Shown here: positions 3,010-34,814 of the stretch, piece by piece | How positions within the stretch are numbered: position 1 is the first letter of the stretch | How the letters are laid out: each line of letters starts with the position of its first letter | Source of the DNA: Eledone cirrhosa | Lineage: Eukaryota | Reading direction: 5' to 3' | DNA: 64,000 nucleotides | NCBI GenBank assembly: GCA_964016885.1 | Contig: OZ024743.1 | Coordinates: forward strand, 126,852,001-126,916,000 | Notes under the pieces: generated by a model | The model's input: only the letters and a program-made list of their open reading frames with translations | What the model was told of the DNA's origin: nothing | Database searches by the model: none | Made by a program: the position numbers and the translations under genes

Positions 3010-3312
3010 GTTTAGTTATTAAAGCAAACATACAAAGTAAACTTCATAAACTTTTCTCTTTCGCTCTACACCCCCTCTCTCTCTCTATGTTCACGCACAC
3101 ACATATGTATACATATGTATACATATATATATCTATGGAATATGTATCAAGTAAATATAGAATATACTATGTTTCCTCTACGTTATATGGTACTTTCTCT
3201 CTATATATATACATATATCTTTTTTTATTTGATTTATTATGGCTCTAGATAAAACCAAAATTCTAACATACTTGATATGTTTTAATTCATTACATTTGTG
3301 TATGTGTGTGTG

Positions 3313-3344
<32 letters not shown>

Positions 3345-3548
3345 ACGAAGGAAATGTGGTAAGGAACCAGATGGACCATAACGCACCAGAGTACTCAATA
3401 CTTAGGGTAGTAGAGGGGGTAATAGGAAAAAGTATGACCCCGACGGCAGAGCTCAAGCCGTTTCGACGGCTATTTCTGAGTCCAGAAATAGCCGTCCAGA
3501 AATAGCCGTCGAAACGGCTTGAGCTCTGCCGTCGGGATCATACTTTTT

Positions 3549-3587
<39 letters not shown>

Positions 3588-3850
3588 CAAAAAGTATGAT
3601 CCCGACGGCAGTTATTAAAGAAAACACAAAGTAAACTTCATAAACTTTTCTCTTTCGCTCTACCCCCCCCCCCCTCTCTCTATGTATCAAGTAAATATAG
3701 AATATACTATGTTTCCTCTACGTTATATGGTACTTTCTCTCTATATATACATATATCTTTTTTTATTTGATTTATTATGGCTCTAGATAAAACCCAAATT
3801 CTAACATACTTGATATGTTTTAATTCATTACATTTGTGTATGTGTGTGTA
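3010..3850. repeat. Local direct duplication (about 3010-3310 vs 3611-3850)
   Basis: Shared gttattaaag...aaacttcataaacttttctctttcgctctac and atgtatcaagtaaatatagaatatac...ttacatttgtgtatgtg. Confidence 0.75.
3343..3553. mobile_element. PLE-like terminal fragment with fold-back hammerhead 3' half
   Basis: GACGGCTATTTCTG/CAGAAATAGCCGTC-GAAACGGC(ttgagctct)GCCGTC on both strands. Homologous copy at 7738-7950; small fragments at about 3590 and 3856. Confidence 0.65.
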
Positions 3851-4228: not shown

Positions 4229-4271
<43 letters not shown>

Positions 4272-4346
4272 TATTATTTTTATCTAAAAACATTTTTTCC
4301 AATTCTATCCCGCCCGTCCCCTTAATCTATTTTATTTCTCATTCTT

Positions 4347-4382
4347 TCTTCTGATGAAGGACTAGCGTCCGAAACGTTAAGA
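4347..4382 (+). ncRNA. Minimal type I hammerhead ribozyme (PLE type)
   Basis: TCTT-CTGATGA-A-GGAC(TAGC)GTCC-GAAAC-GTT-AAGA, with palindromic AACGTT in place of stem III. Confidence 0.78.
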
Positions 4383-4463
4383 CCCTCTTCCTGCTATATC
4401 AAGCGTTAACCTAATATATACCTTCCATATACTGTACCGATTGTGTTGTTATTTCTGTTTACC

Positions 4464-4580
<117 letters not shown>

Positions 4581-5189: not shown

Positions 5190-5260
5190 GTATATGTGTG
5201 TGTGTGTGTGTCTATGTGGGGTGATGATGTATGTATGGATGTTCTGGATGGATGTTCATT

Positions 5261-5442
5261 TGGCAGTATCGGTAGAGGGTCGGACGCCATGCTTTGACGC
5301 ATTGAGTTACGGCCCTTGCCATTCTGAGTTCAAATCCCGACGAGGTTAACTTTGCTTTTCATCCTTATGGGGTCGATAAAATAAAGTTCCAGTAATACAC
5401 TGGGTATTTGCTGGCCTTGTGCCAAAAGTAGAAACAATTATT
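5261..5442 (+). mobile_element. tRNA-derived SINE
   Basis: A-box-like TGGCAGTATCGG, B-box GAGTTCAAATCC, central ctttgcttttcatccttatggggtcgataaaataaag, tail gaaacaattatt. Confidence 0.85.
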
Positions 5443-5445
5443 ACA

Positions 5446-5637
5446 GGGCGGTAGATTGGTATTATCGGTAGAGAGTCTGACGCCATGCTTTGCAGCAAAG
5501 AGTTATGTCCCTTTATGGTCTGAGTTCAAATCCCGCCGAGGTTAACTTTGCCTTTCATCCTTACGGGGTCGATAAAATAAAGTACCAGTAATGTACTGGG
5601 TATTTGCTGGCCTTCTGCCAAAAGTAGAAACAATTAT
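5446..5637 (+). mobile_element. tRNA-derived SINE (tandem second copy)
   Basis: Same A/B boxes and body as 5261-5442. Confidence 0.85.
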
Positions 5638-5848
5638 TTTATGCATTTTAACCAATAGAGAGAGGTGGGTGTGAAACAAAACTCTTTCATTGGAATTTAG
5701 ACAACATCAACTAGGTAAATACGTGTGTATGTCTGTATATGTGTGTGTGTGTGTGTGTGCAGGTTTGGATGCTTTTTGTCTATGTGGATCTGTATGTTTT
5801 GATTTATATGTGTACTGGTGCATATGTTTCTGTCTCTCTGTATGTCTG

Positions 5849-7688: not shown

Positions 7689-8049
<361 letters not shown>

Positions 8050-11349: not shown

Positions 11350-12375
11350 TCAATGGGACCCTTGAACTTTATGGAGTCTAGCTAACTCTTTGACGTCAGG
11401 CTGGATTTTCGTAAGATGTATCCGGAGATCTCCACGTGTAATTACATTGTAGTGGTTGCGAGCCTTGTTGTGCAGTCTGGAAACAGCGCCAAACCTCCTC
11501 TTGACTAAGTATGAGCTTGGAAAAGGCAGAGCAAATCTCTTAGCCTCTGCATGTAGGTGTGGAAATCGACGCTGAATTTCCTCTTGCATCCAAAAAAGGG
11601 GTTCACCTATTTCATCTGCTTGAAGTTCAATGAATTCTTCCTGAAATATAACGTCCAAATCATCGACGTTAGCTATGAAGGGATCTGCTACCCACATTGG
11701 GATGTCCATCGGCAAAAGGTCGACAAACAGTTCTCCCATGTTGTCTTGTAGCGCACGGAGGTGAGCGGTATAAATTTGGAGTTAGTCATCGCTTACAATG
11801 TTTGAACATTGGCGACACTAGGAAAATTATAGAATTCCCGTCAACAAAGATTCCTTTCGATAACATTCAATTTGGCCAGGAATGTTTTCACAGCATTCTT
11901 TGCTTTAAGCAAAGTGATCTTCCCCTGCAAAGTCAAAATGACACTATTGCATTTGTCGACGATGTTGGTGGGGTAGGCGCAGTCTTGCCTCACATCGAGG
12001 GTTTTCTTGTACAGTTCTGTGTTGCGTCCTCGCAGAAACTCAATGATAGAGTCGAACAGTTCAAAGAAGTGAGTAAGGCACTTGCCCTTTGAAAGCCACC
12101 TCACTTCATTATGAAGGAGCAACTTGACGAATTCTTCGTTATTATCTTGGCACAGTTGCCGGAAAATTCGTTCATTGAGGGAATGCGGTTTGATAAAATT
12201 GATGACATCAAGGGCCACCTGCAAGGACTTGCTCAGCGGCTTGCTGAGTTTCTTCGCAGCCAAGTGTTGTCGATGAATGACACAATGAACAACAAATACA
12301 GATAGATTTTCTTTCTTCAGAAGAGTGACGAAACCCTTATGTTGGCCGACCATTGCTCTTGCGTCGTCCGTAGCA
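11350..12375 (-). pseudogene. hAT transposase, C-terminal half, disrupted (SCAND3/ZBED/Buster-like)
   Basis: Motifs HCVIHRQHLA, LLLHNEVRWLSKG, ALPFPSSYLVxRxF, GDLR; split over ORFs 11841-12353 and 11350-11739. Confidence 0.88.
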
Positions 12376-12384
12376 CATGATACA

Positions 12385-12790
12385 ATGTGTGTTGTATTTG
12401 GTCCTAGATGTATATATTACCTGCCTGTGTGTTGTAGGTAGTCCTAGATGTATGTATTACCTTCTTATGTATTGCATGTGGTTCCAGCTGTATGTATTAC
12501 CTGCTTGTGTGTTGTATGTAGTCCTAGATGTGTGTATTACCTCCTTATATGTTGTATGAGGTCCTAGATGTATGTATTACCTGATTATGTGTTGTATGTG
12601 GTCCTAGATGTTGTATTACCTGCTTATGTGTTGTATGTGGTCCTAAATGTATGTATTACCTGCCTGTGTGTTGTATGTGGTCCTAGATGTGCGTGCTACC
12701 TCATGTGTTGCATGTGGTCCTAGATGCGTGTATTACCTGCTTATGTGTTGTATGTGGTCCTAGATGTGTGTGCTACCCGCTTCTGTGTGT
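12385..12790. repeat. 40-bp minisatellite, about 10 copies
   Basis: Unit about tgtgtgttgtatgtggtcctagatgtatgtattacctgct; gtcctagatg recurs at 12401, 12441, 12521, 12561, 12601. Confidence 0.9.
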
Positions 12791-14068: not shown

Positions 14069-14247
14069 TGGCAGTATCGGTAGAGGGTCGGACGCCATGC
14101 TTTCCAGCATAGTTACGTCCCTTTACGATCTGAGTTCAAATCCCGCCGAGGTTGACTTTGCCTTTCATCCTTACGGGGTCGATAAAATAAAGTACCAGTA
14201 ATGCACTGGATAATTGATGGCCTTGTGCCTAAAGTAGAAACAATTAT
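14069..14247 (+). mobile_element. tRNA-derived SINE
   Basis: Same family as 5261-5637. Confidence 0.85.
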
Positions 14248-14424: not shown

Positions 14425-14496
<72 letters not shown>

Positions 14497-14700
14497 TATG
14501 TATACGTACATACATATATGTATACAGACGTACAGTAGTATGTATATATATACATACATGCACATATATATATATATATGTGTACGTATGGATTTACCGA
14601 ACATTTATTATAATGCTCAGTTTGTAAACAAACATCCCGAATTAAGCCGTACAGTGTTTAGCAACCATCGTTGCCCTTTTGTTCAACACTAACAAAGGAG

Positions 14701-14742
14701 CGATGTACTAGTTTCAAGCTTATTAGCTATCGTCAGCACCGT
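14701..14742 (-). ncRNA. Type I hammerhead ribozyme
   Basis: Minus strand ACGGTG-CTGACGA-T-AGCT(AATA)AGCT-T-GAAAC-TA-GTA-CATCG. Confidence 0.85.
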
Positions 14743-15417
14743 ATATCTTCCTGCCAGATGATTGAACGTCTGAAAGTATATACTTTCCTTATGCATATTA
14801 ACGGCTGAGCAGTCTAATTTGCATATCGAGTGAGTTAATCGGCCGGGCGCACCGAAAACGATAAATGGAAAAAATGAAACGAAATTTCATTTCTCACTCT
14901 TAGTACGGCTGATACTTAAATATAAGTATGTATACGTACATACATATATGTATACAGACGTACAGTAGTATGTATATATATACATACATGCACACATATA
15001 TATATGTACGTATGGATTTACCGAACATTTATTATAATGCGCAGTTTGTTTGTAAACAAACATCCCGAATTAAGCCGTACAGTATTTAACAACCATCGTT
15101 GCCCTTTTGTTCAACACTAACAAAGGAACGATGTACTAGTTTTAAATGTTCGGTAAATCCATACGTACATATATATATATGTGTGCATGTATGTATATAT
15201 ATATACACATTACTGTACGTCTGTATACATATATGTATGTACGTATACATACTTATATTTAAGTAACATCCGTACTAAGAGTGAGAAATGAAATTTCGTT
15301 TCATTTTTTCCATTTATCGTTTTCGGTGCGCCCGGCCGATTAACTCATTCGATATGCAAATTAGGCTGCTCAGCCGTTAATATGCATAAGACGTTCAATC
15401 ATCTGGCATGAAGGTAT

Positions 15418-15460
15418 ACGGTGCTGAGGATAGCTAATAAGCTTGAAACTAGTACATCGT
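15418..15460 (+). ncRNA. Type I hammerhead ribozyme
   Basis: ACGGTG-CTGAGGA-T-AGCT(AATA)AGCT-T-GAAAC-TA-GTA-CATCGT; palindromic ACTAGT stem III; GUA cleavage triplet. Confidence 0.85.
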
Positions 15461-15721
15461 TCCTTTGTTAGTGTTGAACAAAAGGGCAACGATGGTTGCT
15501 AAACACTGTACGGCTTAATTCGGGATGTTTGTTTACAAACAAACCGAGCTTTATAATAAATGTTCGGTAAATCCATACGTACATATATATATGTGTGCAT
15601 GTATGTATATATATACATACTACTGTACGTCTGTATACATATATGTATGTACGTATACATACTTATATTTAAGTATCAGCCGTACTAAGAGTGAGAAATG
15701 AAATTTCGTTTCATTTTTTCC

Positions 15722-15752
<31 letters not shown>

Positions 15753-19778: not shown

Positions 19779-19834
19779 ACTGCCTGATGAGGTCATAGCC
19801 ATTCAATGGCTATCATCGAAATATATATAGCAGT
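19779..19834 (+). ncRNA. Type I hammerhead ribozyme (PLE 3' end)
   Basis: ACTGC-CTGATGA-GGTCATAGCCATTCAATGGCTATCATC-GAAA-TATATATA-GCAGT, then AATAAA and (TA)n; an upstream reading of PDGLN (about 19580) resembles a GIY-YIG C-terminus. Confidence 0.82.
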
Positions 19835-20226: not shown

Positions 20227-20523
20227 ATGATAGAAATGATATCGTTTTCAAAGTCAGATAAAAGTTTGTTTCCTTTTTTCTCTCTTTTTCTCTCTTTCTC
20301 TCTCTCTTTCTTTCTCTCTGTGTACAATTTTGTCACTACCAAATCAACCTTCTCAAATGCAAGTAGATGTTGTTACGGTATGTCGAATCTATTTATCTAT
20401 AAAACTGTTTATATTGTATTTTGTCTGAGGAAGGCATAGCATATTGTTAATATGATATCCCTGAAATATATATAATGAAATAAATATGGTTTTATAAATA
20501 TAGTTTCCATTTATTTAATATTG
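20223..20523 (-). repeat. Inverted duplicate of the PLE 5' junction (reverse complement of 20943-21243)
   Basis: Near-identical; ORF-track translations 20227-20439(+) and 21028-21360(-) match over the shared part. Confidence 0.9.
20417..20482 (+). ncRNA. Type I hammerhead ribozyme (pLTR copy)
   Basis: TATTTTGT-CTGAGGA-AGG..CATATT(GTT)AATATG..CCT-GAAA-TATATATA-ATGAAATA. Confidence 0.72.
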
Positions 20524-20545
20524 TATATATATATATATATATATA

Positions 20546-20626
<81 letters not shown>

Positions 20627-20776: not shown

Positions 20777-20947
<171 letters not shown>

Positions 20948-20984
20948 ATTAAATAAATGGAAACTATATTTATAAAACCATATT

Positions 20985-21050
20985 TATTTCATTATATATA
21001 TTTCAGGGATATCATATTAACAATATGCTATGCCTTCCTCAGACAAAATA
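20985..21050 (-). ncRNA. Type I hammerhead ribozyme (inverted pLTR copy)
   Basis: Reverse complement of 24584-24649. Confidence 0.72.
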
Positions 21051-21124
21051 CAATATAAACAGTTTTATAGATAAATAGATTCGACATACCGAAACAACAT
21101 CTACTTGCATTTGAGAAGGTTGAT

Positions 21125-23209
21125 TTGGTAGTGACAAAATTGTACACAGAGAGAAAGAAAGAGAGAGAGAAAGAGAGAAAAAGAGAGAAAAAAGGAAACA
21201 AACTTTTATCTGACTTTGAAAACGATATAATTTCTATCATACAAGGGGTCAAATTCAAGAGAAACTTCAAAGGCCAGGAATATCTGAAAGGCATTAAGGA
21301 TAACATTGAGAGCTTAGAGAAAACTGAGAAGATCTTGGTGAAATCTGACAAGTCCAACAACCTCTATGGAGTGCAGAAAGACATGTATAATGGCCTCATA
21401 CTGAAAGAGCTGAGGAAAAAGTACAAGGTAGCAGATAAGGCCGAGCTTGAGAAAATGAATGTCAAAGCATCTTGTATAATGCACGAGTTGGAAATTGAGA
21501 ACAGAACACAACCTTTCGTGCCCAGGAAACCGAAGATCAATATGAAAGATCACAAGCGGAATTTTGAAAATGACCTGCCAGTTAGATTGATCGCACCATC
21601 AAAATCGGACCTGGGCAAATTAAGCAAAAACATTCTTGACAGGGTGATACAGCAAATTAAGAACTTGGATTGTTTATCTAACCTGAACTTGTGGAAGGGA
21701 ACTGGAGAGGTCGTTGAGTGGTTTAAGCAAATTAAATATAACAATAATAATAAGTTTATTCAACTTGATATAGCTAACTATTATTCTTCTATTACCCCTA
21801 ATCTACTAAATAAGGCACTAAATTACGCATTCAAACATACTGACCTAACTAGCAATGAAATGCATATTATATTATCGGCTAGGAAAACTTTGATAGAATT
21901 TAATGACCAACTATGGACCAGAGCAGATAGAGATAGCAATTTTGACATTACTATGGGATCATCCGACTCAGCCCAGGTAACTGACCTTGTGGGTTTATTT
22001 TTAATCAATTCGCTACATAGGAAAATACCCGGTACTACCGGAGGTTTATATAGAGACGACATGCTTTTACTTATTGATAATAATAACTCTGAACTAAATA
22101 GAAAATGTAAACAAATTACACAATTTTTTAATTACTTTAATCTTAAAATAGAAATTGAAAACAACCATAGAATAGTCAATTTCCTAGATATAACATTAAA
22201 TCTCAACACATGTCTTCACTATCCTTTTCACAAGTTGAATGAAAACTTAAACTATGTAAACTTTAACTCTAACCACCCCAGATCTGTCAAAAACACTATA
22301 GTAAACTCTGTCCAAAAACGTATCTCTAGGATCTCGTCGAATAGAAAGATTTTCGACGAAAAAGCCCAATACTACAATGAAGCATTAGCTAGAGCAGGAT
22401 ATGCTGATAAGATTGTGTACATAGATAATGATAGACAAACTAAACAAAGTAACAACTTTTTTAATTACGGCAACATCCTTAACAACTATAATAGAAAGCG
22501 TTACAATAATTCCAAAGGCCAAAAAAGAAATAGAACTAGGAACATAATTTGGTTTGCCCCCCCTTTCTCACTAAACATTAAAACCCACATCGCTAAACTA
22601 TTTTTTAAAGCTCTTGATAATCGCTTCCCTAGAACACATAGATATCACTCAATTTTCAATAGACATACAATTAAATTAACCTACTCATCCACCAAAAATT
22701 TAGCACAAAATATCAATAGAATAAATAATAGGAACTTAAAACCTAATGATAACAGCATAAATAATATACAAGTTAACAAATGTAACTGTAGAGATAGATC
22801 TAAATGTCCGTTAAATAACAACTGCTTAGTTAAAAATATAGTATACAATTGTAATGTTAATACTGACTCTAATTATTTTAACTACGTCGGTTCCACATCG
22901 ACGGAATTTAAACTTCGCTATAATAACCACAAGAATTCTTTCACAGATCCAAGTAAAAAATCTTCAACGGCACTATCAGGCGTACTATGGCAACTTAAGC
23001 TAGATAACGTTAGATATTCGACGGCTTGGAATATAGTCTCAAGAGGGATTCCTTTTAATTCATCCTCTGAGACATGTGACCTCTGCGCAGAGGAGATATT
23101 CTTTATACTAAAATCTAAAAATTCCCTTAATCTACGGACAAATTTATTCAGTTGTTGCAAACATAGATTAAACTCAACGTTTAAATATAAATTTAAATTT
23201 AAAATGTAG
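21125..23209 (+). CDS. Penelope-like reverse transcriptase + C-terminal GIY-YIG endonuclease (Hydra-clade-like)
   Basis: 694-aa ORF: KSDKS, QLDIANYYSSI, ITMGSSDSA, LYRDD, FLDITL, SNHP; linker CNCRDRSKC (CxCx5C); IVY...YVG, RYNNH, CDLCAEE, LN. The first ~25 aa derive from the inverted pLTR, so the true N-terminus is missing. Confidence 0.93.
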   Translation: MVVTKLYTERKKEREKERKREKKGNKLLSDFENDIISIIQGVKFKRNFKGQEYLKGIKDNIESLEKTEKILVKSDKSNNLYGVQKDMYNGLILKELRKKYKVADKAELEKMNVKASCIMHELEIENRTQPFVPRKPKINMKDHKRNFENDLPVRLIAPSKSDLGKLSKNILDRVIQQIKNLDCLSNLNLWKGTGEVVEWFKQIKYNNNNKFIQLDIANYYSSITPNLLNKALNYAFKHTDLTSNEMHIILSARKTLIEFNDQLWTRADRDSNFDITMGSSDSAQVTDLVGLFLINSLHRKIPGTTGGLYRDDMLLLIDNNNSELNRKCKQITQFFNYFNLKIEIENNHRIVNFLDITLNLNTCLHYPFHKLNENLNYVNFNSNHPRSVKNTIVNSVQKRISRISSNRKIFDEKAQYYNEALARAGYADKIVYIDNDRQTKQSNNFFNYGNILNNYNRKRYNNSKGQKRNRTRNIIWFAPPFSLNIKTHIAKLFFKALDNRFPRTHRYHSIFNRHTIKLTYSSTKNLAQNINRINNRNLKPNDNSINNIQVNKCNCRDRSKCPLNNNCLVKNIVYNCNVNTDSNYFNYVGSTSTEFKLRYNNHKNSFTDPSKKSSTALSGVLWQLKLDNVRYSTAWNIVSRGIPFNSSSETCDLCAEEIFFILKSKNSLNLRTNLFSCCKHRLNSTFKYKFKFKM

Positions 23210-24583
23210 TATATTTAGTTTGATTTATAATTATATGGGAAACTAGCCGATAAATCTTTGATTCTCTTTTTATTCTTTTTATTTTTATTTTATTTATTTA
23301 AACATTCTTCATGAAAAATTAAGCTACCCTAAAAGTTGATGCTCCAAATATTTCGAATAAACGTTACACTAGATAAACTTCTATATTAAATATAAGAACA
23401 CATGTAGACCAAATTGGGCATCCTATACTTTTTGAAATGATCTTTGCTAGATGCGATTTGATAGATAATTTTTTGGCTTTATCTGTTTTTCGACTCTGAT
23501 GTTTATAATGAACTTGGCAATATATTGTCAATTAATTTTGAAGGGTTGATCTTTGTGGTTTATTTTATTTTATTATTGTAGTATTTCCTAATATTTTTAT
23601 TTTTAATATTTTTAATATGTAAATTTTTTAATATGTAATATTTTTAATATGTAATATTCTTTCGTAATATTTCTTAGTTTTCTATTTTATTATTACTTAT
23701 TATTATTATTGTTATTTTTAGTTTTGTTTCCGATATATTTTTATTTTTATTAGTATATTGAAATCTGCTCTATCTTTGCTTGATAGATAATCTTGTAAAG
23801 TAGAGACAGAAATAGTAATATTGACTCTATATACACATATATGTATACTTAAATTTTTTATACCGCATTGAGAATACTTTCCGTGAACTTAGGGTTTGCA
23901 GAATTGATCATGTACATTCACATAGATGTTTGTAATTATCACATAAACATATGAATTTTTTAAAAAACTAAACATAAGATCATTAATTTTCACACATTGT
24001 GGATACATATCTCATTCAGGAATACTGATATTTACAATGTAGAGGCTGGTTTTGTAAATACTAATACCTCTACATTAAAACAGAGGTTTTTACGCCTCGC
24101 CTGTGTCTGGATATTTTTGAATTTTTTCTCTCTCTTTTTTTCTGTCTCTATATTTTTTCTCTCCCTATATAACAGCTGGTTTTCCCTCCATATATCCCCC
24201 TTACATTAATACTAGAGCTAAATAAATAAATAAATAAATGTATCATTGATACGTTATTCAACAGACGTCCCACTACCTAGCTTTCTATATATATGTATCT
24301 ATCTCTATTTGCTCTCTCTCTATATATATATCTTTCTGTTTCTTTACATGAAGTTCTTCTCTTTATCTATCTTTCCATCTCTCTATTTTGTTCCATGCAT
24401 TTCTTCTTTTTCTTTTTCTTCGTTTTCTGTCTTTCTTTCCTTTTTTCTCTCTTTTTCTCTCTTTCTCTCTCTCTTTCTTTCTCTCTGTGTACAATTTTGT
24501 CACTACCAAATCAACCTTCTCAAATGCAAGTAGATGTTGTTACGGTATGTCGAATCTATTTATCTATAAAACTGTTTATATTG

Positions 24584-24649
24584 TATTTTGTCTGAGGAAG
24601 GCATAGCATATTGTTAATATGATATCCCTGAAATATATATAATGAAATA
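24584..24649 (+). ncRNA. Type I hammerhead ribozyme in the 3' pLTR of the PLE
   Basis: Same motif as 20417-20482; stem II differs compensatorily from the 1269-1333 copy. Confidence 0.75.
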
Positions 24650-24957
24650 AATATGGTTTTATAAATATAGTTTCCATTTATTTAATATTGTAAATATACT
24701 CCAAATATTTGTCGAGTGCTTTTATATCAGTTATAAATATTTACTAGTTGTAACCCAACAATTTAAATATAACTTTCCATATATATATATATATATATAT
24801 TGGATTAAATGCTCTGAAATAGCGATATATATGTGAAGATAGACATAGAATATTCGAAAATATTCTGTATGTTTATAATAAACATTTTGAAGACCTAATC
24901 GCTATAGAATAGAATACGTCACGTATTACAATTAGATTCTCGACAAAAGCAAGGGAA

Positions 24958-25000
24958 GTAACCTACGCGTTTCATTCTTATTAGAAATCTTCAGGATTAC
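24958..25000 (-). ncRNA. Type I hammerhead ribozyme (310-bp monomer)
   Basis: Reverse complement of 25436-25478. Confidence 0.85.
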
Positions 25001-25267
25001 ATATCCAGTGCTTTTATCGAGAATGACACAGCTAGAGACTTATAGAATACTTAGCTGTGTACAGGAACTGGTTTGAAAGAGCGGTTGCCGGTCCGGCAGA
25101 AATTAGAAATTGGATTAAATGCTCTGAAATAGCGATATATATGTGAAGATAGACATAGAATATTCGAAAATATTCTGTATGTTTATAATAAACATTTTGA
25201 AGACCTAATCGCTATAGAATAGAATACGTCACGTATTACAATTAGATTCTCGACAAAAGCAAGGGAA

Positions 25268-25310
25268 GTAACCTACGCGTTTCATTCTTATTAGAAATCT
25301 TCAGGATTAC
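25268..25310 (-). ncRNA. Type I hammerhead ribozyme (310-bp monomer)
   Basis: Reverse complement of 25436-25478. Confidence 0.85.
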
Positions 25311-25435
25311 ATATCCAGTGCTTTTATCGAGAATGACACAGCTAGAGACTTATAGAATACTTAGCTGTGTATAGAATACTTAGCTGTATTCTATAAGTCT
25401 CTAGCTGTGTCATTCTCGATAAAAGCACTGGATAT

Positions 25436-25478
25436 GTAATCCTGAAGATTTCTAATAAGAATGAAACGCGTAGGTTAC
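25436..25478 (+). ncRNA. Type I hammerhead ribozyme (310-bp monomer)
   Basis: GTAATC-CTGAAGA-T-TTCT(AATA)AGAA-T-GAAAC-GC-GTA-GGTTAC; palindromic ACGCGT stem III. Confidence 0.87.
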
Positions 25479-25745
25479 TTCCCTTGCTTTTGTCGAGAAT
25501 CTAATTGTAATACGTGACGTATTCTATTCTATAGCGATTAGGTCTTCAAAATGTTTATTATAAACATACAGAATATTTTCGAATATTCTATGTCTATCTT
25601 CACATATATATCGCTATTTCAGAGCATTTAATCCAATTTCTAATTTCTGCCGGACCGGCAACCGCTCTTTCAAACCAGTTCCTGTACACAGCTAAGTATT
25701 CTATAAGTCTCTAGCTGTGTCATTCTCGATAAAAGCACTGGATAT

Positions 25746-25788
25746 GTAATCCTGAAGATTTCTAATAAGAATGAAACGCGTAGGTTAC
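25746..25788 (+). ncRNA. Type I hammerhead ribozyme (310-bp monomer)
   Basis: Identical to 25436-25478. Confidence 0.87.
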
Positions 25789-26055
25789 TTCCCTTGCTTT
25801 TGTCGAGAATCTAATTGTAATACGTGACGTATTCTATTCTATAGCGATTAGGTCTTCAAAATGTTTATTATAAACATACAGAATATTTTCGAATATTCTA
25901 TGTCTATCTTCACATATATATCGCTATTTCAGAGCATTTAATCCAATTTCTAATTTCTGCCGGACCGGCAACCGCTCTTTCAAACCAGTTCCTGTACACA
26001 GCTAAGTATTCTATAAGTCTCTAGCTGTGTCATTCTCGATAAAAGCACTGGATAT

Positions 26056-26098
26056 GTAATCCTGAAGATTTCTAATAAGAATGAAACGCGTAGGTTAC
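26056..26098 (+). ncRNA. Type I hammerhead ribozyme (310-bp monomer)
   Basis: Identical to 25436-25478. Confidence 0.87.
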
Positions 26099-26220
26099 TT
26101 CCCTTGCTTTTGTCGAGAATCTAATTGTAATACGTGACGTATTCTATTCTATAGCGATTAGGTCTTCAAAATGTTTATTATAAACATACAGAATATTTTC
26201 GAATATTCTATGTCTATCTT

Positions 26221-26251
<31 letters not shown>

Positions 26252-28623: not shown

Positions 28624-30367
28624 CACCGTGTAACATAGTTTATGTTCCCCGGTTCTAAATGTCATTTCCTGGTTTGTTATATCCTATTATTATAAAAAAC
28701 ACTATTATTTAATCGGAAATTTGGGTTTGTGGTCAGGAGTTTGATATTTCGAAATTTTCATATTTTTCAAGAAAAAACACATTTTTTTTTTAATTTATCA
28801 GTTCATATAATTAAATCAACAGAGTATATATTTATTTTATTACACAAGCTTATCAAAAGCAAACAAGTAAAAACAAATAACACTTATAAAGCAACTTATA
28901 CACGTCAGAAATGACTGGATTTCCTGGATTTGCGGTTGTAGTCCAGGTTGCATTCCCGCACTAACCCCCAGATATAGTCCCCTATCATTTTTTCATTGTA
29001 GTGGCCCTGGTACCTCCGTTCTATCTCTCTCACATCTTGGTGGAATTGTTCGCCTTGTTCTTCTGAGTTGGCGCCCATATTGTCCTTGAATTTTTCCAGG
29101 TGAGCGTCCAGCATATGGAGTTTAAGCGACATCCTGCATCCCATGGCGCCAAAAGCCTTTATCAGATCCTGCACCAGTTGCTGGTAGTTTTCAGCTCTGT
29201 AGTTGCCTAGGAAGCCCTTAACAACTGCCTTGAAACAGTTCCATGCTGTTCTCTCAATCCTATTGAGCTTATTGGAGAACTCGGTAGACTCAAACACCCT
29301 CTTTATCTGAGGTCCAACAAAAATTCCACCTTTGATTTTGGCCTCAGATAATTTGGGGAACAACTCAAGAAGGTACTTAAAAACAGCTGATTCTTGGTTG
29401 AGAGCCTTCACAAACTGCTTCATCAACCCCAACTTAATGTGCAGTGGCGGCATGAGCACAATCCTGGGATCAACCAGTGGCTCCCACATGACGTTCCGGG
29501 TCCCAACTACAAATTCTGTTCGCTGCTCCCAGTTCTTTCTTTTTTAGTGGTCAGAGGTGGCTCTGCTGTCCCAAAGGCAGAGGAAGCATTGAAATTTGAT
29601 AAAGCCTCCTTGGAGTCCAAGCAGGAAAGCCACCATCTTGAAGTCCCCAATGATTTCCCAATTGTACTGGTTGTATTGCAGAGCTTCCAAGAGGACTTTC
29701 ACACTGTAGTAATCTTCCTTCAGGCAGACTGAATGAGCTAGGGGCAGTGTCGGGAACTTGTTTCCATTGTGGAGGAGGACAGCCTTCAAACTTGTGGTGG
29801 AGCTGTCTATAAATAGTCGCTACTCCTTGGGCACATACGGCACCCCAATAACGTCAAACAGTCCAGGCAAGTCATGGCAGAAGCAGAGGCCATCCTTAAG
29901 AGTGTAAAAGCCTGAGAAAGGTTCGTGTCGACTTCTCTGACTTGTCACCTGCACTTCCTCCTTGACCAAGGTCCACTGCTTCATCCTGGAAACGAATGCT
30001 TAAAACACAACTTACTCTTTATTCAGGGTGCGAAAATCCAGTATCAATAAATCACTTTAATCCACTTTTTAACAATTTTATACTTTATTGCACTTTTATA
30101 ATTTTCTTTAGGTATTACTCTTTATTTTATAATTTTAATTTAACCTGAAACATATATAAAGAAATCATTTAACATAAGCAAATTAAACTTACATACAACG
30201 TAAAATACAGCATACAAATAATTCTAGTGAATAGCTTAGAATTTTAAAAAACACAAACTTTTAACTGTTTAATAGCACTTTTTTTTTATTTATTTGAGAC
30301 CTAAGCAACACAAAAAAGTGATTACAAGCCAGGAACAGAGAAATTTTTTTTTTTTGTTTACACGGTG
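28624..30367 (-). mobile_element. Chapaev3-type DNA transposon, internally deleted
   Basis: TIRs CACCGTGTAACA / TGTTTACACGGTG; 3-bp TAA TSD on both sides; transposase inside. Confidence 0.82.
28905..29995 (-). pseudogene. Chapaev3 DDE transposase, C-terminal part with two in-frame stops
   Basis: LFIDSS, LKAVLLHNGN, GDFK..LLGLQGG..CFLCLWDSR, PPLHIKLGLMKQFVKAL, SLKLHMLDAH, EEQGEQFHQD; stops near 29822 and 29545 in the same frame. Confidence 0.85.
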
Positions 30368-32338: not shown

Positions 32339-34459
32339 TTTCTTTATTAGCCACAAGGGCACAAAAGAAGGGGACAAATACAAAGGGGGAAGTTTACATA
32401 CAATAAAAACGTGTAAAATATTATCACAAATGCAATTTAAAAATTAGTCGATTTTCCCCCAATAGGGGGAGACATTACATATGGGTAACACATACCCTCG
32501 AAAAAAAAATGTGCAACCCTCATCTCCAGGAGTACGAAGAGTTTGTACTCCTTTCCTCTCCTCCTCTTTTTCCTCAACCTACAGGCTGATATAGAGAGAA
32601 GGCCCATTCACTTGGGCCATTCTCGCCACTTTCACCCACCTTTCATAAAACTTGCTGGGGTACAGCACCTCTCTCTCCATCCTGACTCTTCTTCCAAAGT
32701 GGTATTTGAAAAAAAGAATCAGTTGTTGGCCGCAGAGAAAGGTGTCTGATCTCAGCCCTTTCAACCTTGTCCACCATACAACCTCTTTCGCCATAGCTAT
32801 CACACAAAGGAAAACCGCCTCTCCTTCGTTTTTGAAGGAGGGTGGCGGTTTGATCATGACAATGGACTCGGTGGTCAACCGGATTGGTCCCACACGCGAC
32901 AATAGTCGTTCTACATAGCCCCACAGGTCGGTGACGCCCGGGCAGTGTATGAATGCGTGCGCGACGGTTTCTTCGTCTCGCACGCACCTCGGACAGATCT
33001 TTTTTGCAGGGTCCCTGCCCGGGCGCCCATGTCTGTAGAGCTTGTCTCGAACTGGTAAAGCTCCTCGGTAGCACTGCCAGGCCAGGGACTTTTGGAAGTT
33101 GTCCATCGGTCCCGGGCGGAAGGTCCTACCGAACAGACTGGCCAGTTCGTCTTCCTCTGCGCCTAGAGTTTCACCGAGCACGTCGTCGCACTTGCTGCGG
33201 ATCAACCCTCTATAGAATGACAAAGTGGAGTCTTCACTGATCGCTGGGTCCGCCTGCCAGAGGGCTGTGAGCGTCTGAACACATTCGATGTGCCAGTCGC
33301 CCATTTTCCTCGGTCTTTGCTTGACCCAGGACTGCAGCTCGATCAGAGAGACGAGTCGTGGGAAGGCTCGCCTCACGAACGGGGCCCACACCGGTTGTCC
33401 GGTGAGAAATACGTAGAGATGCCGCAGCCTGAGCGCGTGTTTGCGCATCGTCAGCCACGGCATCCCCAGCCCTCCGTTGGAAGGGTGTTGGCAGCAGATG
33501 GATCTTCTCACCAAAGGATCCCGCCTCTTCCAAAGGAATTGGAAGAGCGCGCGCTCCATTTTGGCGAGCGTTTTGGCTGGACAAGGCACGACGGTCAAGC
33601 GGTAGTAGATGGCGGACGCTATAAAAGTGTTCGCCACCTCCGCTCGACCTTTCAAGGATAGTTTGCACTCGGCCCACTTCTGGGTGAGTGCAAACACCAT
33701 GGCCGACACCTCGTTCCAGTTCTTCTCCACCTGGAGGTCCGGACCAAACCAGACCCCGAGCAGCTTTACTGGTCCTTCCGTCCAGCGTCCGACGACGCCA
33801 TCGGAAGGCATCGGTTTGCCTCTCCACGATCCGAGTTGCAAACCGATGGACTTGTCCCGGTTCAGCTTCGCTCCTGTGAACCTTTCGTATTTCTTCAGTA
33901 AGGTGCCGACTTCCTCGATTTGCAAGGCGCTCGACACCATTATTATCACGTCGTCGGCGTAGGCCGACGCCGCTTTCCGCAGTCCCGGTTCCAGAGGGAT
34001 GCCCTGCAATAGCTCCAACTTCCGCAGTAGTGACTCGAGAGTCAATACGTACAGAAGGGAGGAGAGGGGGCATCCCTGTCGAATGGATCGCGTGATATGG
34101 AACGGCTCTGAGAGGTAGCCTTTCACCTTAACCCTTGAGCAGATGTTGCTGTTGTGCATTGCAGCAATCCAGCCCCCGAACACGGGTGCGAAGCCTGCCG
34201 CCTCGAGCACCGCATCCAGGTAACGATGGTCAACCCTATCGAAAGCCTTAGACTGATCCAAGTTGATCAGGGCCCCATCGAAGCCGGGTTTACATCCTAC
34301 CTTCTCTATGATGTATCGCATGAGGTGGGGGTTGTCGTGTATGGACCTGGTCGGGATTGCACATGTCTGCGCTTCTCCCACCAGGTTCTCGACGACAAGC
34401 GCCAGCCTCTTTGCCAACACCTTGGCCAAAATCTGTAACTCTATGTTTAGCAGAGTTAT
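32339..34459 (-). mobile_element. Tx1/L1-like non-LTR retrotransposon, 5'-truncated
   Basis: GC-rich; begins abruptly within the RT (ITLLN); 3' UTR ends in AATAAAGAAA. Confidence 0.88.
32579..34429 (-). CDS. LINE ORF2 fragment: reverse transcriptase + zf-RVT zinc finger
   Basis: LDQSKAFDRVDH, IRQGCPLS, AYADD, KLLGVWF, GGLG, CPRC..ETVAHAFIHC. Confidence 0.9.
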   Translation of the reverse strand: MAKVLAKRLALVVENLVGEAQTCAIPTRSIHDNPHLMRYIIEKVGCKPGFDGALINLDQSKAFDRVDHRYLDAVLEAAGFAPVFGGWIAAMHNSNICSRVKVKGYLSEPFHITRSIRQGCPLSSLLYVLTLESLLRKLELLQGIPLEPGLRKAASAYADDVIIMVSSALQIEEVGTLLKKYERFTGAKLNRDKSIGLQLGSWRGKPMPSDGVVGRWTEGPVKLLGVWFGPDLQVEKNWNEVSAMVFALTQKWAECKLSLKGRAEVANTFIASAIYYRLTVVPCPAKTLAKMERALFQFLWKRRDPLVRRSICCQHPSNGGLGMPWLTMRKHALRLRHLYVFLTGQPVWAPFVRRAFPRLVSLIELQSWVKQRPRKMGDWHIECVQTLTALWQADPAISEDSTLSFYRGLIRSKCDDVLGETLGAEEDELASLFGRTFRPGPMDNFQKSLAWQCYRGALPVRDKLYRHGRPGRDPAKKICPRCVRDEETVAHAFIHCPGVTDLWGYVERLLSRVGPIRLTTESIVMIKPPPSFKNEGEAVFLCVIAMAKEVVWWTRLKGLRSDTFLCGQQLILFFKYHFGRRVRMEREVLYPSKFYERWVKVARMAQVNGPSLYISL

Positions 34460-34814
34460 GGTAGATAGATAAATAGATAAATAAGCAAAGTAATTAGATA
34501 ATTCAGTATTGTGTACTTTTATTGCAGTGTCTAGTTATTGTCTTGTATAGTTGGAGGAACAGCTGGGTAGGTATGTAATTGAAAGAAAGGGAAGTTTAAA
34601 ACGCCTTAACACAAGAGAGAACAATATCAATATGAGCAGCAGAACATACTTGGAGCAACAAAGGAACGACGTGGGGGGGGGGTCAATGGTGGTGGTGGTA
34701 ATGGTGGCGATGGTGGTGGTGGTGATGGTGGTGGAAGTGGTGGAATATAGATTGATAATAATAATTCTTTCTTTATTGGCTGCAAGGGCCTACACATAGG
34801 AGACAATACAACAA

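Follow-up and report, generated by a model that had tools for sequence, protein, structure and literature searches.

A head-to-head hammerhead retrozyme of Eledone cirrhosa with the insertion structure of Penelope-like elements

In a 64,000-nucleotide stretch of the Eledone cirrhosa genome (hereafter the window), the element at 14490–15723 is a head-to-head insertion of a non-coding 428-nt unit in (AT)n. It belongs, as a new family, to a known class, the non-LTR retrozymes, i.e., non-autonomous Penelope-like elements (PLEs), and was likely copied by a PLE reverse transcriptase (RT), probably of the Hydra clade, with two likely starts on one RNA. The initial annotation had missed the feature that tells most about it, an insertion structure of PLE type; the ~430-bp monomer, first tandem and then inverted, and the hammerhead in each arm that the annotation had described were both found. 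The features of the element and its relatives in the window are the following:

14430–14494, no strand: (AT)n target microsatellite, left flank, its last bases overlapping the arm end
14490–15142, minus strand: left arm, 653 nt, consisting of 9 nt left from a hammerhead, a complete 428-nt unit and 216 nt, and ending at the short 3′ site
14696–14748, minus strand: type I hammerhead, left copy, with core 14736–14706, predicted cut between 14706 and 14705, and an A·C mismatch at 14700
14706–15133, minus strand: full monomer of 428 nt, from one cut site to the next, with a GC content of 35% and a folding z of −6.2
15134–15142, minus strand: 5′-truncated remnant of the next hammerhead, 9 nt, where the left arm reads through the cut site
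15142–15143, no strand: blunt head-to-head junction of the two 5′-truncated arms
15143–15723, plus strand: right arm, 581 nt, from nt 103 of the unit to the long 3′ site, with an 18-nt deletion at 15389/15390
15412–15464, plus strand: type I hammerhead, right copy, with core 15424–15454 and predicted cut after 15454
15509–15515, plus strand: 5′ strand of a 7-bp long-range helix in which the subfamilies show compensatory changes (alignment columns 59–65)
15669–15723, plus strand: 55-nt tail, from the short to the long 3′ end, containing the 3′ strand (15678–15684) of the long-range helix
15722–15754, no strand: (AT)n target microsatellite, right flank
20943–24782, plus strand: autonomous-type PLE, 5′-truncated, with an inverted short arm and a long 3′ end; candidate driver
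24800–26231, no strand: 310-nt sister retrozyme, head to head with long and short ends, inserted in (AT)n behind the PLE

In the coordinates of the unit, the short 3′ end lies at nt 217 and the long one at nt 273. As in other retrozymes, the unit is low in GC (35%) and has neither a coding frame nor LTR-type direct repeats; the open reading frames of at least 110 aa that touch the element are microsatellite frames only. Each 428-nt unit carries one type I hammerhead, and the tandem arms of the family reach 4–8 units. The RNA outside the hammerhead is also structured (z −6.2), and the long-range helix with its compensatory changes extends into the tail. As annotated initially, the hammerhead of the second left unit is cut short, at 15142, with 9 nt kept and a blunt join to the right arm. 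The difference in the core at N7 was likewise confirmed, with C in the left copy and G in the right, and the copies differ outside the core too: the left one carries the A·C mismatch where stem I ends (14700) and its outer stem is broken, and the 18-nt deletion of the right arm lies upstream of its hammerhead, relative to the left copy.

The family (hereafter 430) is dispersed and of high copy number in the 3.0-Gb genome, where PLEs co-occur with it, and its copies differ by a median of 4.7% from the majority base. We found 23,741 exact matches to the 430-type hammerhead core, 9,171 sites for the core of the 310-nt family and 10,764 sites for a class with a G–C pair in place of the U·U mismatch in stem II, each against 0 in the control; these numbers count hammerheads, not insertions. 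Since units of 420–434, 466–502 and 467–469 nt can be aligned over their full length, the 430 unit is part of a superfamily, in the 467 branch of which the U·U position is G–C. Outside the hammerhead, no similarity to the 310 unit was detectable (blastn E 0.04–0.06 over 26 nt; nhmmer E 0.029). The 467–469-nt family (L010:2106–3340, L227, L171–L190, L265–L267), which holds the 10,764 cores with G–C at 10.1/11.1, has a GUU or GUC cut triplet and forms arrays of up to ~31 units. Subfamilies with an AACA loop have units of 466–538 nt (L236, L238, L241), with loop 1 UAA as in the 467 family, or of 420–426 nt (L237, L245, L247).

Across 83 loci of the 430 family, two fixed sites, ~55 nt apart and with (AT)n behind them, account for the 3′ ends, and the arms are truncated at random at their 5′ ends, which are scattered evenly over the unit. 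Two of 98 5′ ends lay near the cut site, compared with 2.5 expected, so there was no pile-up there in these loci, which were chosen because their hammerhead was intact or their similarity highest and are thereby biased in one arm. The loci contained 49 head-to-head junctions, of which 34 joined a long to a short end, none joined two long ends, 2 were scored as short with short and 13 were unclassifiable; long with short thus made up 34 of the 36 classed junctions (binomial p 2e-8), and on inspection the two exceptions were explained by a split long arm and by an arm cut inside the tail. Single arms ended at the long site in 22 cases, at the short site in 15 and elsewhere in 5. Overlapping loci were dropped before counting, and L010 and L015 were left out as duplicates of L009. 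Additional long-with-short pairs came from the 430 family (n = 2), the 480/422 subfamilies (n = 8), the 467 family (n = 12) and the 310 family (n = 10), with none long with long and about six unclassifiable. The autonomous PLE showed the same pairing at all five loci with both terminal ends visible, these having been selected for a long arm. In total, 71 such pairs were found in four retrozyme families and the autonomous PLE, and none with two long ends within a family. The tail measures ~55 nt in the 430 family, 27 nt in the 310 family, ~70 nt in the 467 family and ~90 nt in the PLE. The combination of 5′ truncation, inverted adjacent copy, one-ended tail and microsatellite target is that of a non-autonomous PLE, and we regard mobilization of the retrozyme by a PLE as highly probable.

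Because the arms of the 430 family read through the hammerhead cut site and their 5′ ends do not pile up, we infer that the template RNA was a circle or an uncut multimer, and we lean slightly toward the circle. Neighboring opposite arms share subfamily-diagnostic bases in 558 of 673 comparisons, against 54% between loci. In one locus of the 310 family, each of the 20 full units, in both arms alike, has a private 2-nt deletion, and one locus of the 467 family has 12 identical units across both arms. Subfamilies active at different times would likewise make arms share haplotypes, and the two arms have rare alleles in common in only 9 of 215 cases (0.4% between loci); locus-private variants fixed in every unit of both arms, in turn, imply a monomer bottleneck followed by re-amplification. 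A less probable, still substantial alternative is that a PLE mobilized an uncut linear multimer, with the hammerhead a passenger or a processor of transcripts only and the arrays growing later by unequal exchange. The flat 5′ ends are equally compatible with this, and the lizard PLE PAc is reported to accept unprocessed RNA in vitro (PMC11167929). It would also fit the long arrays. Two long 467 arrays contain interspersed variants common to several units, which argues against a pure origin from a single circle or template, and in a 310-family array (L257, G000:C1:43586500–43596499) variants of units +5/+6 recur in units +12/+13; this 7-unit repeat suggests a later block duplication. Against an uncut multimer stand the monomer bottleneck, the selection on the hammerhead fold discussed below and the circles reported for coral, mussel and axolotl retrozymes (PMC7229834).

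Given a circle or a multimer as template, the two arms could come from two primings or from one. We consider two separate primings likely. Alternatively, a single cDNA could have folded back or primed itself to give the inverted arm, its tail being trimmed by the endonuclease. Such a route has been proposed for Penelope inverted junctions (PMC3846280, PMC8557442) and requires that one arm be contained in the other. Containment was possible for 24 of the 34 long-with-short pairs, and at five loci (L027, L040, L115, L237, L240) both arms start at the same position with an overlap of 10–20 nt. In the remaining 10 pairs, the insertion at 14490–15723 included (reference count: long 601, short 661), neither arm contains the other, which argues against fold-back; L002 and L033 were omitted from this count. 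Moreover, arm lengths are uncorrelated and neither the long nor the short class is longer. Fold-back, already disfavored as a general route, thus appears unlikely, and the non-contained arms, the shared haplotypes and the read-through of the cut site without a 5′ pile-up together point to two primings, one per cut end.

The hammerhead of the right arm consists of an outer helix, a UAU/U loop, a 6-bp stem I (15418–15423/15455–15460), a stem II of U·U and three base pairs under a UAAUAA loop, and a palindromic stem III. With its intact core, 6-bp helix I, four-position helix II and palindromic helix III of 1–2 bp, it has the canonical metazoan type I form, except that the R10.1–Y11.1 pair is replaced by U·U in the 430 and 310 families; the 467 homologue has G–C there. 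The geometry annotated initially missed that stem I runs on across the UAU/U internal loop into an additional 3-bp helix. Among 14 variants, stem II is capped by a six-base UAAYAA loop, which is conserved in all of them together with a UAW/U internal loop, the possible partners of a loop 1–loop 2 tertiary contact. Our identification was based on a descriptor scan and on covariation. Besides the two cores of the element, the window contains five of the 310-nt family, and the pattern shared by the families had 7 matches in the window and none in 100 shuffles. No Rfam hammerhead model matched 15270–15560 at E ≤ 10, and across the window Rfam gave microsatellite-driven miRNA noise only, among the matches listed (150 of 379). 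The isolated 430 hammerhead folded no better than shuffled sequences (z −1.1 and −0.3).

Covariation between the families had been taken to affect all paired bases. It is real and smaller than that: when the 430 and 310 hammerheads of the window were aligned, 6 of 12 pairs had changed on both sides and 2 on one side, and 4 were identical. In the 14 variants, 95% of the cells were paired and 10 of 15 pairs showed two-sided changes, compared with at most 51% pairing in slid controls, all of them lower; the rows represent a few related lineages, not independent events. Within the 430 family, one pair of stem I occurs as U·G (33), G·U (28) and A–U (21) and is paired in 85 of 92 loci, against ~51% if the two sides were independent. 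Contigs of the run X1 vary at the same stem I, N7 and loop columns, and the runs X4–X6, with 9–12 contigs each, were excluded as evidence of distribution. Within the family, conservation of the core was only weakly higher (7/482 vs. 493/16,616), in a test disturbed by a 2-nt overlap in the reference. Judged from the sequences compared, the compensatory changes show selection acting on the hammerhead fold, and the claim stands that these elements form a retrozyme family whose type I hammerhead, with 23,741 cores, is conserved and covaries.

The idea that both families inherited a new, lineage-specific hammerhead variant, defined by U·U and an AAUA loop, fared worse. Both the 430 and the 310 family are fixed for U·U (their common pattern has 16,969 matches), and they also have loop 1 and loop 2 letters in common. 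However, a 6-bp helix I, a 4-bp helix II and a palindromic helix III are described as the norm for canonical animal type I hammerheads (PMC4209133), U10.1·U11.1 is reported as a tolerated exception (PMC3088659), and the axolotl HHR_Amex2, with U·U at the base of stem II, is reported to cleave well as a dimer and weakly on its own (PMC7229834). In addition, the true homologue, the 467 family, has G–C at its 10,764 sites, and the loop, supposedly fixed, varies, with AACA common besides AAUA. A search for further U·U families with G/C beside the mismatch gave 0. A lineage-specific variant is refuted as a novelty and very improbable as an explanation; the hammerhead itself is ordinary and the variant is not new. 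A DNA-level repeat, a satellite or a foldback/MITE-like element with a chance hammerhead match, could account for the outer inverted repeats, the tandem units and the missing Rfam match, but is contradicted by the unequal fixed ends, the random inner truncations and the strand-specific G·U covariation, and the same structure in an RT-encoding PLE leaves it next to no credibility.

That PLE lies downstream in the window. Its frame (21071–23209) encodes an RT and a GIY-YIG domain, and its layout is that of the 430 element. Pfam had no family for the protein, which has a DKT motif, a CxCX5C linker, CxxC and CxH motifs, as well as GIY-YIG at the C terminus, with RWR replacing RWK; together with a (TA)n target and a hammerhead, these motifs place it provisionally in the Hydra clade. 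The family gave 38,923 first-look candidates, all 150 scored matches were 97–100% identical, many 745-codon frames are intact, and the family is very young. The Hydra-type family of 20943–24782 is of high copy number and may be active. Its long end and that of the 430 unit share the last bases TTCCAT. A comparison of the 430 unit with the end of the PLE in the window and with two older PLE families revealed no other sequence similarity and no pLTR homology, and 430 copies (median 4.7%) are older than the youngest Hydra-type copies. We accordingly name this family as the driver of the 430 retrozyme only tentatively, with some doubt.

At some loci, the 430 unit directly abuts PLE endonuclease sequence (L014:1–1960 with L216; L099:2385–3860; L117:1062–1974) or other hammerhead repeats (L124, L026, L016, L098). 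We rejected both kinds as decisive proof of a partner because the elements nest in each other's (AT)n, the PLE families differ and L014 joins two long ends, being with L216 the sole head-to-head chimera of PLE and retrozyme with readable ends. These chimeras are possibly template switches or deletions between neighbors. At four other loci (L022, L023, L040, L112), PLE fragments are nearby and do not form chimeras.

Under the mechanism that we propose, the hammerhead would cut read-through transcripts of tandem copies, probably as a dimer via the palindromic stem III, and a host ligase would circularize the released monomer. A dimer of the PLE protein would bind the RNA near the tail and cut both (AT)n strands, and one cDNA would be primed at each cut end, one at the short start and the other ~55 nt further 3′ at the long start. 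Both enzymes would pass the hammerhead site, on a circle or an uncut multimer, and then stop at random, after which the two cDNA ends would be joined nearly blunt. A more ambitious reading, which we hold to be possible and somewhat speculative, is that retrozymes record Penelope integration in vivo: a Hydra-type RT–endonuclease dimer uses two fixed starts on a single circular RNA, gives every two-armed insertion one tailed and one tail-less end, and makes arrays by rolling reverse transcription. If true, the Hydra-type element would be a ready in vitro system for the inverted repeats and the tail of PLEs and for retrozyme mobilization. Together, the three retrozyme groups hold over 40,000 copies of the canonical hammerhead (23,741 + 10,764 + 9,171). 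The signature that these bear can be counted and tells models of two primings apart from fold-back, and the same genome contains a candidate enzyme whose frames are intact.

The window is rich in other repeats. Further hammerhead repeats at 903–1376, 4271–4467, 19779–19834 and 20265–20622 comprise a long and a short pLTR in inverted arrangement, a type with a short stem III and two arms standing alone, giving at least five hammerhead types within 64 kb. Another inverted repeat family that nests in (AT)n (3141–3849 and 7708–7971; flanks of L012, L032, L094 and L161) often adjoins these elements, and a hammerhead scan found none in it. An interspersed repeat of ~180–195 nt, SINE-like by appearance and also present as tandem pairs, occurs at 14069–14247, 5260–5640, 39486–39877 and 1702–1802. 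A LINE frame of 651 aa with RVT_1 and zf-RVT lies at 32579–34534 (minus strand), and two fragments are transposase-like by appearance, without Pfam support (11350–12416 and 28905–29543, both minus strand).

The 430 family resembles the metazoan non-LTR retrozymes described by Cervera and de la Peña in 2020 (PMC7229834), with tandem units of 150–450 bp, one type I hammerhead each, low GC, no coding sequence and co-occurring PLEs. It differs from those reported there in forming mostly dispersed insertions of 1–2 units whose arms stand head to head and whose 3′ ends are fixed at two sites, and is known here from genome sequence; the word "inverted" is absent from the text of that paper. In the literature searched, we found no report of cephalopod retrozymes, and no match for hammerhead or ribozyme in the main text of an octopus repeat annotation (PMC13282606); neither did we find the long-with-short rule or non-contained arms. 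Subscription papers, Repbase and supplements may hold any of these. PMC11167929, PMC8557442 and a 2026 preprint (bioRxiv 10.64898/2026.07.22.740005) name as open questions how tandem and inverted PLE insertions form, what the tail is and what mobilizes the retrozymes of animals. The preprint describes animal retrozymes as non-autonomous PLEs and so reaches the same conclusion on their origin and mobilization. Its evidence, as far as the available text goes, is co-occurrence and pLTR homology in vertebrates, whereas ours is the insertion signature, with pLTR homology not found; "tail" and "mollus" are absent from that text, which reports no in vitro cleavage for eight of nine dimers of Xenopus retrozymes.

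The window's PLE has in common with the Hydra clade as described (PMC8557442) the DKT motif, the CxCX5C linker, CxxC, CxH, the C-terminal GIY-YIG and (TA)n targets, and departs from it in RWR for RWK and in its very high copy number and youth, the assignment being by motifs. More generally, inverted pLTRs with a tail at one end have been reported (PMC3846280, PMC8557442). In the lizard PAc (PMC11167929), the tail is described as the interval between two internal RT starts, with both strands extended and a dimer predicted; in vitro, and counting against our mechanism, RT reportedly starts without a strand difference and hammerhead cleavage is unnecessary. According to these three sources, the 430 element shares with EN+ PLEs the 5′ truncation, partial tandems, inverted adjacent copy and one-ended tail, as well as the AT-rich target, a hammerhead upstream of the end and, probably, two RT starts. 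Unlike them, it is non-coding and has a tail of ~55 nt compared with 30–40. The one-ended tail was thus already known qualitatively, and what is new here, relative to the literature searched, is the quantified long-with-short rule and the non-contained arms: in the published EN+ PLEs, as reported, the tail is optional, whereas in our data the pairing of one long with one short end is nearly strict.
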